Source of the DNA: Cetorhinus maximus
Lineage: Eukaryota
Length of the DNA stretch: 64,000 nt
Direction: 5' to 3'
Assembly: GCF_964194155.1 (NCBI RefSeq)
Contig: NC_135885.1
Coordinates: forward strand, 52,266,001-52,330,000
The translations under genes and the position numbers were made by a program. Position 1 is the first letter of the stretch. The number at the start of each line of letters is the position of its first letter. The notes under the pieces are model-generated. The model was not told the origin of the DNA. It made no database searches and saw only the letters and a list, made by a program, of their open reading frames with translations. Of this stretch, positions 2,541-61,035 are shown in pieces.

Positions 2541-4757
2541 CAGAAGTAAGAGACAAATTCAGGTCTGATATTAGGAAATCCTTCTTCACAAAGAGTGACC
2601 AGCACTCTCAGAGTAGCAGGGGCATAAACCCACAGATACTGCAGTAGCGGGGCTTCAGGATGCTCCTGGATGGGTAAATTGGGATGACCGAATGGTTTCT
2701 CTCATTCATAATTATTGTGTGAATGAAATGAAAAGAAACAGCTTTAATTTAAGGCTATGGCAATATGGATGGAAAGGGACAATTCTGATACCTTTATTAT
2801 GAAAGTGCCAGAATTTCATATTTCTTGACCATCGAAGAACTTTGTTTATAACCAAGCCAAAGCATTTTAAAAAACCTAGTGAAGGCCTATGAATCGATAA
2901 ATAAGTTTCAAGTGTTTGATGGCCAGAAAATTTGCTCCTATCTTCAATGACTTCCCACTCCACTTAGAACATAACATTCAATTTGTGCTGATGATCAGGG
3001 ATGTAGTACCTTCTGTACATAATACTGATTTCCATAAAAAAAGAAAAATTTAGCAATTTGCCAAAATGTTTTCCCAAAGGGCAAAATCTCTAGGGATCCA
3101 TTATATTTGTTGATCCATTGATACACTTAGTAATTGCCACATTGAAATAAATCTTTGCTAATCTATTCATATTTGGATTGTAGGTGCTGAAATATGTTAA
3201 ATCTGCCACTGTCATCTTCTATTTTCATATCAAACTCAAACTTGTTGATTTGCACAACTTGCAAATAAGTTGCATCCTGTCTTTGATGACTGCGCTCAAG
3301 TTTGTAAGAAGCTTTAGTAAAACATTTGCCTCATTCGCAATGAACCAGAACATGTTTGTCAAACAAAATTAAAATACATCTATATCTGAGATTTTTTACT
3401 TACTAGTGTGTTAGAATAAAAACTGCTTCAGATGAAGTTGCTTGCCTAGAAATCTAGATTTTAGCAACAATTGCAGAATATACTTTAAAGTTCCTGGTCC
3501 CAAGGTAAGTTATTTTGTTAATTCAGTAGTTTTTTGTGGTTTTCATCACATTCTACCAATGACACTCCTGTAAACATCTTGCTACATTTTGTTGTTTGCT
3601 TCCACTCCCTGATAATATGGTGCTATTTCTATTGATTTAACTCCATACTGTAATATTCACGGTCATTAACTACATCAACAGATCTTTCATTGTCTGAAAT
3701 TCTTCTGCACCACAAACATCGAATACCCTCAAACCCCATGTATCCACTCACCTTCGTTGTGCTTAAATGTAACAAAACACTGAGAATCTGATTCTCTCAT
3801 CTTAAGTACTATCCAACACATAGGATGCACAGTTAGGACAGCTACATTTTGTTTAGTTTAAAATCTTTAGTTGCCCTTCTAACAAAGTTATAAATACAAT
3901 AATTACTATAAATGATGAAAGTTTAAATTTCTTTCAAATATTGCTCACAAAAAACAGAATTTCAAAACAGATTCATGAAATCATTCATCACCCTTTGCCT
4001 AAAAGCATGCTATAATGCATCTGAAAGCCTTGCAAAAATACAACGTAAGAAGTACCTGATGCAGTATCTGAGCCCTTATTATTTTAGGATAAAAATCGAG
4101 TTAATGCCTTTCACCTTTGACGATGCAAGTTTTAAGTCTTTAGTGGTCATGATCTAAAAGGAATGCTAAGGCAGCCTTGGTTTCACAGTTCATTTGAAAA
4201 TAACTCAAAATTGCAACTGCTTGAAAACTTTCAATATCAATCTTCATTTTACCTGGACTGTAAATCTAAATTAGAATTAAAGACTTAGATTAACAGGCTG
4301 ATTATAATATTGCAGATGAAGAAGTACTTTTTATGTGTGGTGCCTTTGAGAAAAAGATCAACTTGCGTACTGGCTGCACATGTCAATCAGAAATGGATTG
4401 AGGAATCAAATCATTGACATAGGAGTTTTGTTAACCCTTTCAAATTATTGGCACCTCCTGTATGTTCTTTTTTTTATTCATTTACATGATGTGGGCTTTG
4501 CTGGCTAGGCCAGCATTTATTGCCCTTAAGGTGATGGTGAGCTGCCTTCTTGAACGACAGCCATGTGGTGTAGGTACACCCACAGTGCTGCTAGGAAGGG
4601 AGTTACAGGATTTTGACCCAGCGACAGTGAAGGAACGGCGATATATTTCCAAGTCAGGGTGGTGAGTGGCTTGGAGGGGAACTTCCAGGCGGTGGTGTTC
4701 CAATGTGTCTGCTGTCCGTTTCCTTGTAGGTGGCAGTGGTTGTGGGTTTGGAAGATG

Positions 4758-4950
4758 CTCACTGCCTGAAAGGGTGGTAGAGGCAGAAACCCTCATAATA
4801 TTTACAAGTATTTGGATGTGCACTTGAGATGCCATGGCATACAAGGCTATGGGCCTAGCGCTGGAAAATGGGATTAGAATAGTTAGGTACTTGTTTGACC
4901 GGCAAGTCAAAGGGCCTTTTTCTGTGCTGTAGGCCTCTATGACTCTATGA
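4758..4950 (+). mobile_element. CR1 3' fragment nested in the single-ORF LINE
   Basis: ctgcctgaaagggtggtagaggcag... ending in (ctctatga)2, in opposite orientation to the host. Confidence 0.8.
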
Positions 4951-7155
4951 GACTTGATGAGTTTCTGCACTGCATCTTCCAAATGGTAGACTGCTACCAC
5001 TGTGTGTCGGTGGTGGAGGGAGTGAATGTTTGTCGATGTGGTGCCAATCAAGTGGGCTGCTTTGTCCTTGATGGTGTCAAGCTGCCTGAGTGTTGTTGGA
5101 GCTGCACTCCAAGTGCAGGCAAGTGGAGAGTATTCTGTCATACTCCTGACCTGTGCCTTGTAGGTGGTGGATAGGCTTTGGGGAGTAAGGTGGTGAGTTA
5201 CTCGTCGCAGGATTCCTAGTCTATGACCTGCTTTTGTAGCCAGTGTTTATATGGCTAGCCCAGTTCACTTTCTGGTCGACGGTAACCCCCGGGATGCTGA
5301 TAGTGGCGGATTCAGCAATGGTAATGCCATTGAATGTCATGGGGAGATGGTTAGATTCTCTCTTGTTGGAGGTGGTCATTGCTTGGCACTTGAGTGGTGC
5401 AAATGTTACTTGCCACATGTCAGCCAAAGCCTGGATATTGTCCAAGTCTTGCTGCATTTGGACATGGACTGCTTCAGCATCTGAGGAGTCATGAATGGTG
5501 CTAAACATTGTGCAATCATCAGCAAACATCCCCGCTTCTGACCTAGTGATGGAAGGAAGGTCACTGATGAAGCAGCTGAAGATGGTTGGGCCTAGGACAC
5601 TACCCTCAGGAACTCTTATAGTGATGTCCTGGAACTGAGATGATTGACCTCCAACAATCACGGCCACCTTCCTTTGTGCCAGGTATGATTCCAACCAGTG
5701 CAGAGTATTCCCCCTGATTTCCATTGACTCCAGTTTTGCTAGGGCTCCTTGATGCCACACTTGGTCAAATGCTGCCTTGATGTCAAGGGCAGTCACTCTC
5801 ACCTCACCTTGGGAGTTCAGTTCTTTTGTCCATGTTTGAACCAAGGCTTTAATGAGGTCAGGAGCTGAGTGACCCTGGCGGAACCTAAACCGAGCATCAG
5901 TGAGCAGGTTATTGCGAAGCAAGTGCCACTTGACAGCACTGTTGATGACCCCCTTCCATCACTTTCCTGATGATCGAGAGTAGACTGATGGAGTGGTAAT
6001 TGGCCGGGTTGGATTTGTCCTGCTTTTTGTGTACAGGACATACCTGGGCAATTTTCCACATCGCCAGGTAGATGCCAGTGTGGTAGCTGAACTGGAACAG
6101 CTTGGCTAGTGACGTGGCAAGTTCTGGAGCACAAATCTTCAGCACTACTGCAGGAATATTGTCAGGGTGTGTAGCCTTTGCAATATCCAGTGTTCAGCCA
6201 TTTCTTGATATCACATGGAGTGAATCGAATTGGCCATAGACTGGCATCTGTGTTACTGGGGGGCTCTGAAGGAGGCCGAGATGGATCATCCACTCGGCAC
6301 TTCTGGCTGAAGATTGTTGCGAGTGCCTCAGCCTTATTTTTTGCACTAATGTGCTGGGCTCCTCCTTCATTGAGGATGGGGATATTTGTGGAGCCTCCTC
6401 CTCCAGCCTGTTGTTTAACTGTCTACCACCATTCATAACTGGATATGGCAGGATGCAGAGCTTAGATCTGATCCACTGGTCATGGAATCGCTTAGCTCTG
6501 TCGATCGCTTGCTGCTTATGCTGTCTGGCACACAATTAGTCCTGTGTTGCAGCTTCACCAGGTTGATACCTCATTTTTAAGGATGCCTGGTTCTGCTCCT
6601 GCCATGCCCTCCTGCACTCTTCATTGAACCAGGGTTGATCTCTTGGCTTGGTGGGAATGGTGGAGGGGGGACATGCGGGGCCATGAAGTTGCACATTGTG
6701 GTCAAGTACAATTCTGCTGCTGCTGATGGCCCACAGCGCCTCATGGATACCCAGTCTTGAGTTACTATATCTGTTCAAAAATCTATCCCATTTAGCACGG
6801 TGGTAGTGCCACACAACACGACGCAGGGTATCCTCAACGTGAAGACGGGACTTCATCTCCACAAGGACTGTGCGATGGTCATCCTACCAATATTGTCATG
6901 GACAAATGCATCTGCAGCAGGCAGGTCGGTGAGGATGAGGTCAAGTATGATCTTCCCTCTTGTTGGTTTCCTTACCACCTGCCACAGACCCAGTCTAGTA
7001 GCTATGTCCTTTAGGACTCAGCAAGCTCAGTGGTAGTGCTATTGAGCCACTCTTGGTGATGGACATTGAAGTCCCCCACCCAGAGTACATTCTGCACCCT
7101 TGCCACCCTCAGTGCTTCCTCCAAGTGGTGTTCAACATGGAGGAGTACTGATTCA

Positions 7156-7523
7156 GAGGGAGGCGATGGCGTAGTGGTCTTGTCGCTGGGCTAATAATCC
7201 AAAGACCCAGGGTAATGCTCTGGGGACCGGGGTTTGAATCCCACGACTGGCAGATGGTGGATTTGAATTCAATTTTAAAAATCTGGAATTAAAAGTCTAA
7301 TGATGACCATGAAGCCATTGTTGATTGTTGTAAAAACCCATCTGATTCATTAATGTCCTTTTGGGGAGGAAATCTGCTGTCCTTACCTGGTCTGGCCTAC
7401 ATATGACTCCAGACGCACAGCAATGTTGTTGGCTGCCCTCTGAACAAGGGCAATTAGGGATGGGCAATAAATGCTGGCCTAGCCAGTGATGCCCACATCT
7501 CATGAATGAATTTTTTTTAAAAA
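7156..7523 (+). mobile_element. tRNA-derived SINE (full length) nested antisense in its related LINE
   Basis: A-box TGGCGTAGTGG 7167-7177, B-box GGTTTGAATCC 7231-7241. Body matches the LINE 5' region (7969-8230) and tail matches the LINE 3' end. Host sequence appears to rejoin across it (gattca|tcagctg). Confidence 0.9.
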
Positions 7524-10500
7524 TCAGCTGAGGGAGAGCAGTATGTGGTAATCAACAGGATGGTTCCTTGCCCATGTTTGACCTGATGCCATGAGACTTC
7601 ATGGGGTCCACAGTTGATGTTGAGGACTTCCCCAGGCAACTCCCTCCCAACTCTATACCACTGTGCCGCCATCTCTGCTGGGTCTGTCCTGCTGGTGGGA
7701 CAGGACATACCCAGGGGTAGTAGTGATGTCTAGGACATTATCTGAGTATGACTTTGTCAAGCTGTTGCTTGACTAATCTATGGGATAGCTCTCCCAATTT
7801 TGGCACAAGCCCCTGGACATTAATAAGGAGGACTTTGCAGGGTTGATAGGGCTGGGTTTGCCGTTGTTGTTTCTGGTGCTTAGATTGATACCAGGTGGTC
7901 CATCTGGTTTCATTCCTTTTTACTGACTTTTTAGCGGTTTGATACAATAGAGTGGCTTGCTGCGTCATTTCAGAGGACATTTAAGAGTCAACCACATTGC
8001 TGTGGATCTGGAGTCACATGTAGGTCAGACCAGATGAGGACGTCAGATTTCCTTCCTTAAAGGTCATTAGTGAACCAGATGGGTTTTTATGACAATCGGC
8101 AACGGTTTCATGGTCATCATTAAACTTTTAATTCCAGATTTTTTTTTTATTGAATTCAGGTCCCCAGAACATTACCCTGGATCTCTGGATTACCAGTTCA
8201 GTGACAATACCACTACGCCACTACCCCCTCTCTTCATTCTATATAAATTGAGATTGCAGCTTGCTAAACTCCTTAATGATCTGGAACTTGAAAAGTATTG
8301 ATGTGATGGATAGTCATAAATCATCAAATATGTTAAATACCCAATATTCCCATTTTACAGCAACGCTTTTGGTTCATCCCAGCCTGCAGTCTGTTGTTGT
8401 CCAATTGCATCTTTAAGGTCACTATCAGTAAATTAACAAAAGCAAAAAAAAAGAGCCAAGCCATCTAGTTCCTCTTTGGATTGAGAACACAAACAGCTGT
8501 AATCATTGGCACATACGAGCAAGTCCGCAGCAAGGTTCTAATCAGGGTCAGGATAACACCTCTATTTTGCACGCAGAAAGTTTGAAGTCCTTCACAACTT
8601 GGCCAAATGCTTTTGCAGCATCCAATGTAGTTTTTGGTTTTAGAAGTGATGTTCTTTTCTATTAGAATGAATGCAGCTGGTTTGGAGTGTGTCTGGTGAT
8701 GAAAGATTTTTTACAGAATCATAGAAGGCGTAGCACAAAAGCAGCCATTCAGCTCATGTCTGCCAGTGTGATTTTCTTCCATTGAGCCACCTAGCAAAAT
8801 CCGGTCTCCAACTCATCACTATGTCAGTATTTATCTTCCCAAACAACTGCATCAAAATGTGAGTTCAGAAGTTATTTGGGGAAACTGGTCTGAAAGAATT
8901 AAAATTTCAGATTTGAACAGTGGATTCACTTTAAACCACTACAATTGAAAACAAACTTCCTAATTTACGAGTGTTCTGTATATTTCTGTGTCCAATTTAC
9001 AACTGCTTTAATTAATTAATAACATTTGGCATTGGTAGACTCCATTTAATTTCTTAGCTTTGATAGGCCACAATTAAATACATTCCTCTAATTAAATTAG
9101 TAAAGTCAACAATATTGTGGGACTTGATTGCAGTCAGTAAGGTTTCAAGGTCTCCATGATGGGCCAGTAACCCATAGACAATAGAGACTTGCAATGAGAC
9201 TGAAGACAGAGATAAGAGGAGTCCAAAAACCATTCTGTACCTGGAAATGTTTGTTCCAACTCCATGGAACGATACATGATTGGGTCAATGTTGCTACAAT
9301 TTTGTTTTGGGCTATAACTATAGGGAACTTGGTTCCTTCTCAGTTTAGAGGTTCAAGCTGAGGGTGCAACAGGTCAACTTCTGCTCAAATCGACTATAAA
9401 CTGATTATAATGATGAGCCAGCCAGGAACTGATTAACAGCTATTGGTATAATTGGAGTGGTTGGCTATTTAGCCAGCTAAGGAAAGGAACCTTGGGAAAT
9501 ATAGGACATTGTGACCTACCAGCAGTGTTCCCTCTAAGCTGCACAGTCCAGAAGTTCCTACACAGTCCGTGAATAAGTCAGCCCTTTTAAGTTGAAACAT
9601 GCAATTCAGAATGATTTAGTGTCATTTTGATTGGTCCAAGTAGAGTCATCAAAAGGCGACAGGTATGAAACAAGGTTGAAACCTTGAAGCACTGAAGCTG
9701 ATGGTATATGCTGCAAGCTTCTCAGAGCCATTACAGCTTCTCTTCCAAGAAAAATTAGGTTTAAGTGGAAGAATTACTGAGTGAAAGAAAATGTAAAGGT
9801 TCCTGGAATTTCAGTTTGTGTGGAAATGTGTGTCAATGTTTAAGAAGTTACAGCAATTCCTTTTGTTTGAAATGCTCTCTTTTAAAGAAAATGTGTCTGC
9901 TGTTGTCCTCTGGTGTCCCCTGCACCCTCTATTCTGTTCACAGGGCTAAAAGCCATTCAACCCTTTGTAGTTTTGTCTTTGATTAAAATGTTTAAAATGA
10001 TTCCAGAATCCATGTCCTTTCAACAGTGTTCACTGTTTTAAGTTGTTAATTGTACGAACCACTGCTCCTCTTTTTAATGAATTTATAAACTCCACTTCAA
10101 CAATGATTTGGTCTAACCACCCTTTATGTAAAGGAATTTTATGAGCCTCAACATAAATTCTATTTTTTTTAAATTATCTTAAATTACTGATGCCATCATC
10201 CACCTTATTACAACCCAGGTCACCTCAGCTATAGTTTGCAGCATTCTCATCTACAGTTACAAGGCCTCAACTTCTAATATCGCTTTTAATAAGTGAAACC
10301 CCCTCATTCTGTAATGACTAAATAAAAAAGAAGAGTTCAGCAGGGAAATCATTGCCCAGGGGCATTCCCAGAAACCATTATTCTCATTGAGTGTCATCAA
10401 TTAGAATTCAGAAGTCCAAAAGCTGGATTCTCCCTGACCTGTGGACGGAGGGAAATTGCCACTCAGCAGCCATCTGTTTCCTCAGTGTGACTTGGGTCTC

Positions 10501-11677: not shown

Positions 11678-12826
11678 CGATCCCCCTTTTTCCAATAATT
11701 TATAATTTTTAAAAAATATATTTTTCTTTTCCCACCTATTTTTAAATTTATTTCCATCTATTGTTTTATCTCCACCTTTTAGCCCATTTCGATCCCTTCC
11801 CCCCCACCCCACCCCCACCAGGGCCATCTGCCACTTAATATCACCACCGTCAACACCCCTTTGTCCTTTTATCTATGACATCTTTGGCAATCTCTTCTTT
11901 GCCTCCAAAAATTCAGCAGGTCTGACAGCTTCTGTGGAGAGGGATACAGTTAACATTTCGAGTCCGAATGACTCTTCATCTGAACTAAGGAAAATAGAAA
12001 AGAGGTGAAATATAAGCTGGTTTAAGTGGGGATGGGGGGGGAGAGACAGGTAGAGCTGGAAAGAAGGCCAGTGATAGGTGGAGATTGCCAAAAGATGTCA
12101 TAGACAAAAGGACAAAGAGGTGTTGACGGTGGTGATATTAGCTAAGAAATGTGCTAATGGAGACATTAAGGGTGGAAAGCAGGGCAAGCAAGGGACAGAT
12201 AGCCCTAGTGGGGGTGGGGGGTCGAAATAGGCTTCCATCCATTGTTTTATCTCTACCTTTTAGCCTATTTCGAACCCCCCCACCCCACCCCCACTAGGGC
12301 TATCTGTCCCTTGCTTGCCCTGCTTTCCACCCTTAATGTCCCCATTAGCACATTTCTTAGCTAATATCACCACCGTCAACACCTCTTTGTCCTTTTGTCT
12401 ATGACATCTTTTGGCAATCTCCACCTATCACTGGCCCTCTATTCAGCTCTACTTGTCCCACCCCCCCCTTAAACCAGCTTATATTTCACCTCTTTTCTAT
12501 TTTTCCTTAGTTCTGATGAAGAGTCATTCGGACTCGAAACGTTAACTGTATCCCTCTCCGCAGATGCTGTCAGACCTGCTGAGTTTTTCCAGGTATTTTT
12601 GTTTTTGTTCTAGATTTCCAGCATCCGCAGTATTTTACTTTTATCTTCTTTGCCTCCACCTATCACTGGCCCTCTATCCAGCTCTACCTGTCCCACCCAC
12701 CTCTACCAGCTTATACTATTTCCTTAGTTCTGATGAAGAGTCATATGGACTCAAAACGTCAACTGTGTTCCTCTCTGCAGATGCTGTCAGACCTGCTGAG
12801 TTTTTCCAGCTATTTTTGTTTTTGTT
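11678..12826. mobile_element. Nested Penelope 3'UTR/pseudo-LTR complex: inverted-repeat insert (11908-12643) inside an older copy
   Basis: Homologous to the 3' UTR of the Penelope at 30543-30990. 15-bp TSD tcttctttgcctcca at 11893-11907 and 12644-12658. Inverted arms ~11910-12233 and ~12262-12590. Confidence 0.88.
12509..12547 (+). ncRNA. Minimal type I hammerhead ribozyme motif in Penelope pLTR
   Basis: AGUU-CUGAUGA-A-GAGUC-auucg-GACUC-GAAAC-GUU^AACU: stem I, conserved core, stem II hairpin and a palindromic minimal stem III. Such motifs are established for Penelope-like elements. Confidence 0.75.
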
Positions 12827-18134: not shown

Positions 18135-18513
18135 GTATTTTCATTTATATGGCATCTTTCACAACCTCAGGACACCCCAAACGATGGCCACTTTTATAAT
18201 ATAGTCAAATGTAGTAGCTGATGTGTAGGTCCCACAAACAACAATGAGACAAGCGGCCAGATAATCAGTTTTACTGATATTGGTAGAGGAATAAATATTG
18301 GACTGGACATTGAGAATTCTCCCGCTCAAATAGTGCCATGGGATCTTTTAAGACCTCAAGGGGGCAAAGGAGGCTTCAGTTTAACATCTCATCCAAAAGG
18401 CAGGACCTCTGGCAGTGCAGTACTCCCTCAGCACTGCACTGAAGTGTCAGCCTAGACTATGGGTTCAAGTCTCTGGAGCGGGGTTTGAATGCCCAGCCTT
18501 CTGACTCAGAGAC
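18135..18513 (-). mobile_element. DeuSINE (SacSINE1/AmnSINE1-like)
   Basis: Reverse complement contains the Deu-domain core (gaggtcctgccttttggatgagatgttaaac...aaagatcccatggcactattt) and an L2-type tail; homologous to 46440-46880. Confidence 0.75.
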
Positions 18514-32847: not shown

Positions 32848-34528
32848 TGTTAGGAAATAGAGATAGTTTAGGTAAGTTATATTGTAGGTGTTAGGAGTGA
32901 GTTTTAGCTTTAATGTTTAAGTTTGATTTGTATTTCTGTATCTGTGTGTTAAGAAGAGGTCAAATTGAGTTTTAACTTCACTTTAAATGGTGCCTGCATT
33001 TCAAATGAGAGTTTTACGACTGTTGCAGCTAAGTGAAACAAACAATAGTAGAGAAACTGGGCTGTTGCCTAGCAATAGGGGTCCAGAGGGGCAGATCCCT
33101 CCCACAGACAACAGAGGAAACTAGAAACAGCAGTTTGATTTGGAAGCTGTTTGAGTTCAGTTGGTTTTCAAAGTAGCTGCAAGGAGAGACTGGAGCAAAG
33201 GAGACAGATAGCCAGTCTCAAGCTAAAGAAAAGACCCCAAAACCCAGGAGAGTGGAACAGGAGAAAGTCCCAAGACAACGTTCTAGACAAATGAAAGGGC
33301 AGGAACTAAGGAAAGGGCAGGAACTTGGTAAAGGTCCTGTTAAGTGAAGTTAAGAGTGAGGGCCAAGAGAGAAAGACTCCAAGCTTTAGATTTAAAAAGA
33401 CAAAAGCTGCAGAAAGCAGATTTAAAGCGAGAACAGCTTGCAAGAGGCCAGAAAGTCCAAAGAGATGGCTGAAGGACTGTAACTCTTTGCTATGGGCATG
33501 TGAAGCAGTGGTGTACTGTTGACAGCTGAGTTGGTGAGAAAGAGTGCGGAAGACAGCCTGAATGCATGTGGTGACCCAGGGAAGAGGGAAACCAGAAGGA
33601 GAGCTCAAAACCCTGGAGGTGAACCCTTGCAAAAAGCATCTGAAAGAAAGTGATGGTTTGGGAGAAGATTCCAAGGAGAGTTCTTGGAGATTGGAAACCC
33701 TCGTGTGAAAGACGGAGTTCAGTGAGACTGATTGGCTCACGGTGTGACAAGTGTCCAGGGGGGGAGGGGGGAGTTGAGGAAAGATCCATAGCATTTGGTT
33801 GAGGTGACATCTGTCACTTGGTTTCAGAGTGTGGTATGCCTGACTACAGGTCACCAATTGGTTTATATGGACTCTGTACTTACTGTGAACATTACAGTAT
33901 AAGATAGTTTTTGTAACTTGTGCTATCTTTACAAATCTGTATACACCTTGGTATATATCTTTTTTATTTGTTCATGGGATGTGGGCATCACTGGCTAGGC
34001 CAGCATTTATTGCCCATCCCTAATTGCCTTTGTTCAGAGGATAGTTAAGAGTCAACCACATTGCTGAGAGTCTGGAGTCACATGTAGGCCAGACCAGGTA
34101 AGGACGGCAGATTTCCTTCCCTAAAGGTCATTAGCGAACCAAATGGGTTTTTATGACAATCAACAATGGTTTCATGGTCATCATTAGTTCCAGATTTTTA
34201 CTAAATTCAAATTTCACCATCTGCTGTGGTGGGATTCAAACCCAGGTTCCCAGAGCATTAGCCTGGGTCTCTGGAATACTAGTCCAGTGACAATACCACT
34301 ATGCCATCGCCTCCCCTATAGTTTTGGGTGAAAGAGTATTGTAATCTAGTTCATTTTTTCTTGTTGAATAAATGTTTTATTCTTTTGTTAAAAGTTCATC
34401 AGTTGACTCCTGTTCAATAGCTAGTCTCCATGCATCTAAACAAATAAATAAAAATTAGGATCTATCAAGCTGGGTTTCACCTTGGGATCAGGCTTGTCCA
34501 ATGGTAACGTCAGCTAGTGATCATAACA
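32848..34528 (+). mobile_element. Putative solo LTR (Gypsy-like, ~1.3 kb net) carrying a SINE insertion
   Basis: TGTTA...TAACA termini and AATAAA signals near 34367 and 34443. The TSD is imperfect (atcag/atag). Confidence 0.6.
33960..34316 (-). mobile_element. Second full-length copy of the tRNA-derived SINE
   Basis: Minus strand ggggaggcgatggcatagtgg (A box), gggtttgaatccc (B box), same body and tail as 7156-7523. Confidence 0.9.
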
Positions 34529-36177: not shown

Positions 36178-37408
36178 ATGGATGGATTTGTTAAGAGAAG
36201 GTTGTGTCTGACTAATTTGATTGAATTTTTTGAGGAAGTAACAAGGAGGATTGATGAGGATAGTGCAGTTGATGTGGTCTACATGGATTTTAGCAAGCCT
36301 TTTGACAAGGTTCCACATGGTAGACTGGTTAAAGATATAAAAGCCCAAGGGATCCAGGGGAATATAGCAAGCTGGATACAAAATTAGCACGGTGGCAGAA
36401 AACAAAGGGTAATTGGGGTAATTGTTGATGGGTATTTTTGTGACTGGATGACTGTTTCCAGCAGGGTTCCGCAGGGCTCAGTGCTAGGTCCTCTACTTTT
36501 TGTGGTATATATAAATGATTTGGACGTAAATGGACGACACAAAAATTGGCCACGTGGTTAATAGCTCTAGACTGCAGGATGGGCAGAAAAGTGGCAAATG
36601 AACTCAACCCAGAGAAGTGTGAGGTGATGCATTTGGGGAGGTCAAACAAGGCAAGGGAATAGACAATAAAGGGGAGGATAGTGAAAGAAATAGAGGAAAT
36701 GAGGGACCTTGGAGTGAATGTCCACAGATCCCTGAAGATAGCAGGATAGGTCGATAAGGTGGCTGAGAAGGCATACGGAATCCTTTCATTTAGTAGCCAA
36801 GGCACAGAATACAAGAGCAGGGAGATTATGCTGGAACTAAAACAAACATTAGTTAGGCCACAACTTGAGGACTATGTGCAGTTCTGGTCATCTCATTACA
36901 GAAATGATGTAAGTGCACTAGAGAGGGTACAGAGGAGATTTATGAGGATGTTGCTAGGTCCAGATAATTACAGCTATGAGGAAAGATTGGATAGGTTGTT
37001 CTCCTTGCAACAGAGGAGACTGAGGGGAGATTTGTTTGAAATGTACAAAATTGAGAGGGGCCTGGATAGCGTGGATGGGAAGGGCCTATTTACTTTAGCA
37101 GGGAGGTCAATGACATGGGGCATAGATTTAAAGTGACTGAAAGAAGTTTTAGAGGGGAGATGAGGAAAATATTTTTTATCCAGAGGGGTGTCGGGATCTG
37201 GAACCCTCTGCCTGAAAGGGTAATAGAGGCAGAAACTCAACTCATTTGAAACGTGTCTGGATATGCACCTGAAGTGCTATAACCTGCAGGGCTACGGACC
37301 AAATGCTGGAAACTGGGATTAGGCTGGGTAGTACATTTTCTGCCGGCACAGACATGATAGACCAAGTGGCCTCTTTCTGTGATGTAAACTTCCTATGATT
37401 CTGTATGA
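36178..37408 (+). mobile_element. CR1 RT-to-tail fragment
   Basis: CLTNLIEFFEEVT..VDVVYMDFSKPFDKVPH; VRPQLEDYVQFWS; tail ctatgattct. Confidence 0.92.
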
Positions 37409-38414: not shown

Positions 38415-38625
38415 AACCAGCACAGAAGCCAATTTGCATACAACAAGGTTCCACAAACAGCAATGAGATAAATGACCAGCTAATCCAGTGTGTGTGGTGT
38501 TGGATGAGAGATAAATATGGGTCAGGAGATAAAGAACTTTCAACTCTACTTTGAATAGTGTCCTGGGATTTTTGACAGCCACCTGAACAGGCAGGTTTAA
38601 TGTCTCATCTGAAAAATGGCGCCTT
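38415..38625 (-). mobile_element. DeuSINE fragment
   Basis: Similar to 18135-18513 (cccacaaaca.caatgaga..ccag.taatc; gggat.ttt; gtttaa.gtctcatc). Confidence 0.6.
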
Positions 38626-39119: not shown

Positions 39120-40160
39120 AATCCTGCATGCAGCAAGGTCTAGACAACATACAGGCTTGGACTGAGTGAGAAATTTATTCAGGTATACAAATGCCAGGTA
39201 ATGACCATCTCCAATGAGACAAAGTCAATCCATCTCCCTTTGACATTCAATGGTATTACCATCACCAAGTCCCCACCATCAACATCCTGAGGGTCACCCT
39301 TGAACAGAAACTTAACTGAATCAGTTATGAAAATGTTGTGGCTACTAGAGCCAGCTCAGAGACTGGGTATTCTACAGCAAGTGATTCACCTCCTACTCCC
39401 AAAAGCCTGTCTACAAGGCACAAGTGAGAATGTGATGGAATATTCTCCACTTGCCTGGATGAGTGCAGCTGCAATACCACTCAAAAAGTTCAACACCTTC
39501 CAGGTCCTTCTGTGACTCTATGAAACATGCACTCATTCCCTCATTGGCACAACGGAGCTGCAGCATGTATTGTCTACGAGCAGTGCAACAACTCACCAAA
39601 GTTTCTTCACCTCCACCTGGAAGAACAGGGACAACAGATACATGGGAACACTAACACCTCTATGTTCCCCTCCCAAGTCACACACCATTCAGACTTGAAA
39701 ATATAATCACCATTCCTTCATCATCGTTGTGTTAAAATTATGAAATTACTGACCCAAAAGTATTGTGGGAGCTCCTTCACCATATGGACTGCAGCAGTTC
39801 AAGAACAAGGTCCACTACCACTATATGTTCTCATGGGTAACTAGGGGTGGGCAATGTATTGATCCTTATGTCTGTGACATCTTTTGATTATCTGCTCTTA
39901 TTACTGCTTGCTTATCTCCACAATCACCACACCCTCAACTTCTCTCTCCCCCCGCCCCACCACCTTAAACCAGCTTATATTTCACCTTTCTCCTAACTAT
40001 GCTTCAGTTCTGCCGAAGGGTTGTGAAGACTCGAAACGTTAACTGATTTCTTCTCCACCGATGCTGCCAGACCTGCTGAGTTTTTCCAGGTAATTCTGTT
40101 TTTGTTGTGGGCAATAAATGTTAGCTTTGTCAGCAAAACCCATATTCCAAGCATGTTTAT
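39120..40160 (+). mobile_element. 3' third of the single-ORF LINE family, with a Penelope pLTR inserted in its tail
   Basis: QRLGILQQVIHLL, VMEYSPLAWMSAA. The tail is split by insert 39856-40106 with TSD gtgggcaat (39847-39855, 40107-40115). Confidence 0.85.
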
Positions 40161-60689: not shown

Positions 60690-61035
60690 CTACATGTAGT
60701 ACTGAGGAAGTGCTGCACTGTTGGAGGTGTCATCTTTCGGATGAGACATTCAACTAACACTTCCCTGTCAGGTGGTACAAAGAATCCCATGGCATAGAAA
60801 GCAGAATGTTCCACTGGATGTACCTTATTAATTATTTATTCTTCAACTAACATCACAACAGCAGCTTATCTGGTCATCGTCTCTGGTTATGTGTGGTGTT
60901 TTGCTGTGCACATATGGTTTAGGATATGGGGCAACAATTAACAGTGGCTACATTTCAAAAGTTAACCATTGGCTGTAAAGCAATTCTTAAAATTCTGAGG
61001 TCATGAGAGGCATTATCAATGCCAGTTCATTATTT
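60690..61035 (+). mobile_element. DeuSINE (5'-truncated)
   Basis: gtgctgcactgttggaggtgtcatctttcggatgagac...atcccatggca Deu core. Confidence 0.75.

Follow-up and report, generated by a model that had tools for sequence, protein, structure and literature searches.

Coding LINEs are usually transcribed by Pol II and short non-coding SINEs by Pol III, the latter being mobilised in trans by a partner LINE that recognises their tail. The closest described system to the elements reported here is a deletion pair from Lepidoptera, formed by the SIDE Persaeus and its CR1-Zenon parent LINE. According to the published description, the parent is approximately 3.3 kb long and carries one APE-RT ORF, as is the case here. 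Persaeus itself measures 260-390 bp and keeps the 5' UTR, the ORF start, the ORF end and the 3' UTR, with breakpoints that vary, again as found here; it is described there as having no tRNA homology, no Pol III promoter and a variable middle (PMC6740152). A second group consists of the bipartite SINEs derived from RTE and Vingi LINEs (Bov-tA, AfroSINE and CoeSINE4), in which the partner LINE has contributed its 5' end to the body and its 3' end to the tail, an arrangement shared by the shark element. As the survey of these SINEs presents them, however, the tRNA head was added later to a bipartite LINE, whereas here head, body and tail are all found in an autonomous LINE; the same survey records SINE bodies with 5' LINE parts only from RTE and Vingi (PMC5786205). 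CR1-Zenon-like LINEs have been reported in the whale shark (bioRxiv 10.1101/443036).

Architecture of the LINE and the related SINE

We analysed a 64-kb window of Cetorhinus maximus DNA (64,000 nucleotides; all positions are those of the window). An earlier note on this DNA had read a SINE within it as the 5' end of a LINE fused to the 3' end of the same LINE, with the breakpoint at the LINE start codon. The features on which the comparison is based are as follows.

7969..8230, minus strand: LINE 5' UTR, equal to SINE head plus body; the A box lies at 8220-8210, the window copy has lost its B box by deletion, family 5' end at about 8226-8230
7741..7968, minus strand: ATG and first open stretch, with an N-terminal extension and the start of the APE domain
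6856..7154, minus strand: endonuclease (APE) region on the downstream side of the nested SINE (Exo_endo_phos_2, E 2.5e-5, below the curated cut-off)
5224..5958, minus strand: reverse transcriptase domain (RVT_1, E 2.7e-24)
4762..4946, plus strand: the other nested insertion, derived from the 3' part of a CR1-type LINE, antisense to the host LINE
4468..4530, minus strand: LINE 3' tail with stem-loop; about 14 nt deleted in the window copy
39128..39860, plus strand: 3' fragment of an older copy from this LINE family, retaining the tail segment missing at 4530
7155..7522, plus strand: SINE copy A, lying antisense in the LINE endonuclease region, where it separates two codons; no target-site duplication
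7167..7177, plus strand: A box of SINE copy A
7231..7241, plus strand: B box of SINE copy A
7445..7522, plus strand: tail of SINE copy A, equal to the last four LINE codons, the stop and the 3' UTR; predicted stem-loop as in the LINE tail
33960..34316, minus strand: SINE copy B; junction at 34033/34032, A and B boxes intact

The LINE is a decayed copy on the minus strand, extending from about 8230 to 4468, with stops and frameshifts that break the coding frame. Once the two insertions are subtracted, it is 3,206 nt long and contains a single APE + RT ORF, without an ORF1. The ATG at 7968-7966 is in frame with the endonuclease start. At the head, the copy is short by approximately 33 nt, including the whole B box, and at the tail about 14 nt were lost between two short direct repeats. 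The missing tail piece is present at 39829-39855 (20/24 letters, by eye) and corresponds to the last four LINE codons and the stop, which places the start of the SINE tail four codons before the LINE stop. The window RT is 31-47% identical to the CR1-type pieces in the window and by eye resembles hagfish CR1-7_EBu. The parent is a CR1-group LINE that is Zenon-like in layout. The CR1-type insertion at 4762-4946 also matches 37208-37402 and 1857-1983, and in another copy of the LINE family the tail is split by an abundant short repeat (39860-40105) and resumes near 40107.

The two SINE copies are 84.6% alike and share one architecture, in which the first ~260-270 nt of the LINE are followed directly by the four final codons of its ORF and the 3' UTR. 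As the earlier note had it, the junction between head and tail is identical in both (7444/7445 in copy A, 34033/34032 in copy B), and the match between SINE head and LINE 5' end reaches as far as 7969, with 79.6% identity over 274 columns for copy B (E 4e-63) and 74.3% for copy A. The match of the tail is likewise real, at 84-86%, but extends over 50-56 nt of the window LINE (4525-4470) rather than the ~70 nt originally given, because this LINE copy has lost the ~14 nt mentioned above. Internal A and B boxes are present in both SINE copies. The tRNA fold itself is weak: copy B scores 14.8 bits against the Rfam tRNA model (E 1.6, cut-off 29), tRNA is not among the 8 weak matches in 7000-8400, and ARAGORN reports nothing at default settings and a tRNA-Thr for copy B when the score is lowered. 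The tails of the LINE and of both SINEs fold into one common predicted stem-loop (z -0.9 to -2.4), which may be the structure recognised by the LINE protein. No target-site duplications were found around the LINE, SINE copy A or SINE copy B.

The SINE is a multi-copy element, with two copies in the window and at least 287 loose ends carrying the same tail at 7969 in one public sequencing run (X4, see below). Both window copies moved as units, and the mobility attributed earlier to the fused product is thereby borne out. The antisense nesting of copy A within the APE region of its own parent, which had been singled out, is real; copy A lies between two in-frame codons and lacks a duplication. 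However, the four pieces of the LINE family occupy 8.3% of the window, so that one of two SINEs lying inside this family is unremarkable and expected by chance. The nesting shows only that copy A is younger than its host LINE copy, and that the short SINE was still moving at that time.

tRNA-like head and junction across the family

Contigs of four public runs (X1, X4, X15 and X17; four organisms) were aligned to 7524-8300 at 80% likeness. The set excludes X20, a coral metagenome run (share 0.04), and X15 and X17, which are presumably RNA, do not count here as evidence of expression. Over the ORF-start bins (7524-7965), the summed contig depth, which shows high repetition and is not a copy number, was 1.1e5-6.5e6 in X1 compared with 82 on the flank, and 1.5e4-1.8e6 in X4 compared with 19. 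The ORF start is highly repeated in all four runs. Each of them shows a steep drop in depth at ~8226, amounting to two to three orders of magnitude, which demonstrates that the 5' end of the family is the head, with nothing ORF1-like upstream. Among the 32 pieces listed, one bridges the junction at 7968 by 31 or more letters on each side; it differs at 35 letters and hence represents another copy. Joints from ORF to head account for 8 of the 15 joints listed.

A phmmer search gave five hits, three of which are whale shark gene models (P0001, P0003 and P0005); the remaining two (P0002 and P0004) are repetitive proteins and were dropped. P0003 starts with a 14-residue translation of the SINE body followed by APE, and these 14 residues reach best scores of 62, 49 and 40 at the three window copies, compared with 24-31 for 8 shuffles. 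P0005 contains the translated SINE body through the junction and then APE, while P0001 begins at the homologous ATG. The gene models are possibly spliced and, having been found via open-frame similarity, are biased to open copies. The tRNA-like head, putatively with both A and B boxes, is a trait of the LINE family, and full-length copies begin with it. The family is seen in the four organisms of the public runs and in the whale shark, with an RT piece in the horn shark. In the latter, the first ~125 residues of a 'FERM domain-containing protein 7-like' model (P0006) correspond to the LINE RT at 64% identity; this may reflect exonisation or an annotation error.

The headed LINE could in principle be a local accident, in which a SINE without a tail inserted, at this locus only, immediately upstream of a LINE truncated at its 5' end. 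There is indeed a single headed LINE copy in the window, and no target-site duplication delimits the whole element. Nevertheless, the junction is crossed by other copies in the public runs and in the whale shark gene models, and long forms of the SINE hold sequence from beyond the junction. An accident confined to one locus is therefore very unlikely and largely refuted. The bipartite reading, in which the SINE combines the 5' and 3' termini of a LINE with a tRNA-like head, is upheld for the family by both the public-run contigs and the whale shark models. The structure, a SINE in which both ends of such a single-ORF LINE are joined, is real and family-wide.

The exact position of the breakpoint is less uniform. 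At least three junction forms occur within ~30 nt of the ATG among the loose ends of the four runs (forms are those among 24 of 2,682 loose-end entries, and letter variants, used further below, those among 40 of 284). The form present in the window, at 7969, accounts for at least 287 records in X4. A longer form keeps ~24 nt (~8 LINE codons) past the ATG before the tail, with at least 338 records in X1, 348 in X4 and 36 in X17; its consensus agreement is only 0.48-0.55, and it is mixed with LINE copies. At least three X17 pieces end at 7950-7951, and a shorter form at 7973 is represented by at least 25 records in X17. The proposal of a breakpoint at the start codon is consequently retained in part: the junctions cluster near the ATG, yet they vary between subfamilies, and a TAG often follows the ATG. 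A junction that varies between copies and bears no relation to the ATG had been named beforehand as grounds for rejection, and the observed pattern goes halfway towards it. This TAG is the third codon (two codons past the ATG) in the loose-end consensus of three of the four runs (X1, X4 and X15), whereas X17, P0001 and the window copy have an open frame past the ATG. As the X15 consensus with the TAG continues LINE-like, some LINE copies may not start at this ATG, and 7968-7966 is best regarded as a putative protein start for the family as a whole.

Direction of descent and mode of transcription

Over 247 shared columns, the LINE has 24 private differences, SINE copy A 20 and SINE copy B 8. 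At sites where the runs often differ from the window LINE (among the variants listed), copy A carries the other letter at 14 of 14 and copy B at 11. Taken together, these counts indicate that the LINE head has had no long separate history and that much of the difference reflects decay of the window copy. Its distance from the SINEs is roughly the distance between the two SINEs themselves. At three sites that are split in the runs, among those listed (7977, 8064 and 8090), copy B has the LINE letter and copy A does not, a hint that head subfamilies cut across the boundary between SINE and LINE.

The closeness of the LINE head, together with LINE sequence from both ends of the ORF in the long junction form, favours deletion from the LINE. 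We consider descent from LINE to SINE reasonably probable, as judged from the three copies in the window and the junction forms in the runs. A tRNA or an older SINE would at some time have been the source of the LINE head, whichever the direction. Internal deletions, most likely template jumps in reverse transcription, would then have removed nearly the whole ORF. The remainder, comprising the 5' UTR with 0-8 codons, the last four codons and the 3' UTR, has the structure observed in the copies, and would have arisen by this route if the direction is correct. With a Pol III promoter in the 5' UTR and a stem-loop in the tail, such a deletion product would be a complete SINE that could be mobilised in trans by its parent. 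One or several deletion events followed by trimming may account for the long, short and shorter junction forms.

The reverse order, which the earlier note offered alongside deletion, would require that an existing long-form tRNA SINE, sharing only its tail with the LINE, passed on its initial ~285 nt through template switching, whereupon the LINE took an ATG of the SINE body as its start. A tRNA-like head must stem from a small RNA at some point, and a TAG past the ATG, as in three of the four runs, would be natural for non-coding SINE sequence. The shared part is also deeper than the ORF part in contig depth, and module exchange is described as common among SINEs (PMC5786205, PMC4824008). On the other hand, the SINE body is without a Deu, Meta or UCON3 motif that would imply an older independent history, and the LINE head is no more diverged than the SINE copies are between themselves. 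Furthermore, a tail that begins inside the ORF end and junctions that cluster at the ORF start reproduce the Persaeus pattern. We regard an origin of the LINE head from a pre-existing SINE as the less likely order.

A further property of the LINE sequence bears on whether the parent makes use of its tRNA-like head. Pol III terminates at runs of four or more T (PMC4758252). On the LINE sense strand there is a single such run in 3,206 nt, at 6781, which is probably a later lesion because the frame shifts exactly there. Runs of A4 on the same strand number 15 compared with 16.8 expected, and the shortage is hence specific to T. When pooled, the LINE family has 3 T4 runs in 5,315 nt and the CR1-type pieces 16 in 3,446 nt (0.3-0.6/kb versus 4.6/kb; binomial P 8e-5, or 7e-4 adjusted for T content), a post hoc contrast between pieces that are homologous and overlapping. 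About 6 T4 runs in 1,540 nt were counted by eye in hagfish CR1-7_EBu. The scarcity is significant relative to mononucleotide shuffles (P=0.016) but not to dinucleotide shuffles (P=0.27); when protein and codon usage are preserved in the null (858 codons), P(0)=0.015, or P=0.10 if the run at the frameshift is counted. SINE copy A contains two internal T4 runs. The scarcity of T4 is a moderate hint, and no proof, that the LINE may be transcribed by Pol III.

Transcription of the parent LINE by Pol III from its own head, which would fit the absence of both ORF1 and T4 runs, is accordingly a possibility to which we give somewhat less than even weight. The head may instead be a genuine part of a LINE that uses Pol II, through an internal promoter or read-through, with the A and B boxes of consequence only for the SINE derivatives; this would be compatible with either direction of descent, and we put it at about an even chance. 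Use of Pol II by non-LTR elements is stated by Kojima (2024), who also argues for the processivity of Pol III as a limit on how long an element can be (PMC10886601), and Pol II is the polymerase given for all characterised LINEs in the accounts consulted (PMC10886601, PMC5786205). Zenon, a single-ORF LINE described without any tRNA head (PMC6740152), illustrates that a missing ORF1 needs no Pol III. The B box is missing from the window LINE copy, uncapped Pol III RNA is poorly translated, and the dinucleotide-shuffle result points the same way. Against the use of Pol II stands the T4 density in the family, which is far below that of the CR1-type pieces and CR1-7_EBu, with A4 runs at the expected level. 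The combined proposal, that the LINE maintains 3.2 kb without T4 terminators and gives rise again and again to finished SINEs via simple internal deletion, is put forward tentatively, and we hold it to be rather doubtful as a whole.

A high-copy vertebrate LINE with a complete SINE head would allow the birth of a SINE in one step, by a single deletion, with parent and product both available. The origin of SINE bodies, presented as an open question in the survey of bipartite SINEs (PMC5786205), becomes testable in such a system. Should the parent use Pol III, its RNA would be a coding Pol III transcript of 3 kb and would pair naturally with the earlier report that retrotransposition of Pol III transcripts can dispense with ORF1p (PMC2666806). 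In practical terms, shark repeat annotation would split one family into 'SINE' and 'LINE' parts.

Comparison with known elements

In the literature covered, no tRNA-headed CR1-group LINE or matching SINE is described; most subscription journals lay outside this scope, and Repbase, Dfam or SINEBase may already name the family. A sequence-motif search of papers yielded chance primer matches only. DNA pattern scans for the element gave 0 matches in viral contigs and 0 in metagenome contigs, and RT scans found no relative in viral contigs or GTDB genomes. The RT scan of metagenomes recovered only two distant LINEs, L001 (31% identity) and L002 (46%), with no DNA match to the head, so that neither is informative about this family. 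The former (L001:440-4868) is a two-ORF LINE on a metagenome contig, distant from the shark family, whose ORF1 is of the CCHC type and whose APE-RT frame is open over 965 residues. A word-index search with the N-terminal 77 aa gave no match, and the ESM Atlas returned generic RT clusters only.

Several SINE identities were considered and rejected. The first candidate was SacSINE1/DeuSINE, but the Deu motif is absent from both SINE copies. The 66-bp Meta domain that follows the head in MetaSINEs gives 0 matches with up to 3 mismatches, and the UCON3 domain is absent, by eye against the published alignment. We take the SINE body to resemble neither the V nor the CORE domain. Elsewhere in the window, the Deu motif occurs at 18379-18394, 38595-38610 and 60739-60754 (3 found, 0.01 expected); these matches are distinct from the SINE studied and are probably SacSINE1-type copies. 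A 682-nt inverted repeat at 11907-12588, 89% self-complementary, is formed by a pair of short repeats from an abundant family, presumably HE1/V-SINE-like, that occurs many times in the window and also supplied the insertion at 39860-40105.

Among elasmobranch elements, SacSINE1 (Deu, with an L2 tail) and HE1 (a V-SINE) are, like the present SINE, tRNA-headed with LINE-derived tails, but the accounts of them report no sharing of 5' sequence with a LINE (PMC5499810, PMC3747384). RTE-1_DAn is likewise reported to be a LINE with a tRNA-like sequence that matches many SINE2 elements; in contrast to the shark parent, it is an insect element of the RTE clade, and the survey treats it as a source of accidental hits, with position and function not given there (PMC5786205). 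The TRIMp3 elements (Cassandra, Helenus and Ajax) also place a small-RNA Pol III promoter outside classic SINEs, but belong to the LTR elements, are non-autonomous and do not exceed 1.3 kb; their autonomous partners are expected to use Pol II (PMC10886601).

The comparison with Persaeus is the most instructive. As in that element, homology extends to the LINE 5' UTR/ORF start and to the ORF end/3' UTR, the short form being without the ORF start and the long form keeping ~24 nt of it. A SIDE of the Persaeus type is defined by having neither tRNA homology nor a Pol III promoter, whereas A and B boxes are present here; the shark SINE thus works in a SIDE-like manner without being a plain SIDE. 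Deletion derivatives of this kind are already known, and the most interesting part here is a parent LINE with a tRNA-type head. Unlike the parent of Persaeus, the shark parent itself probably carries the A and B boxes, and its derivative is a SINE2 by structure.
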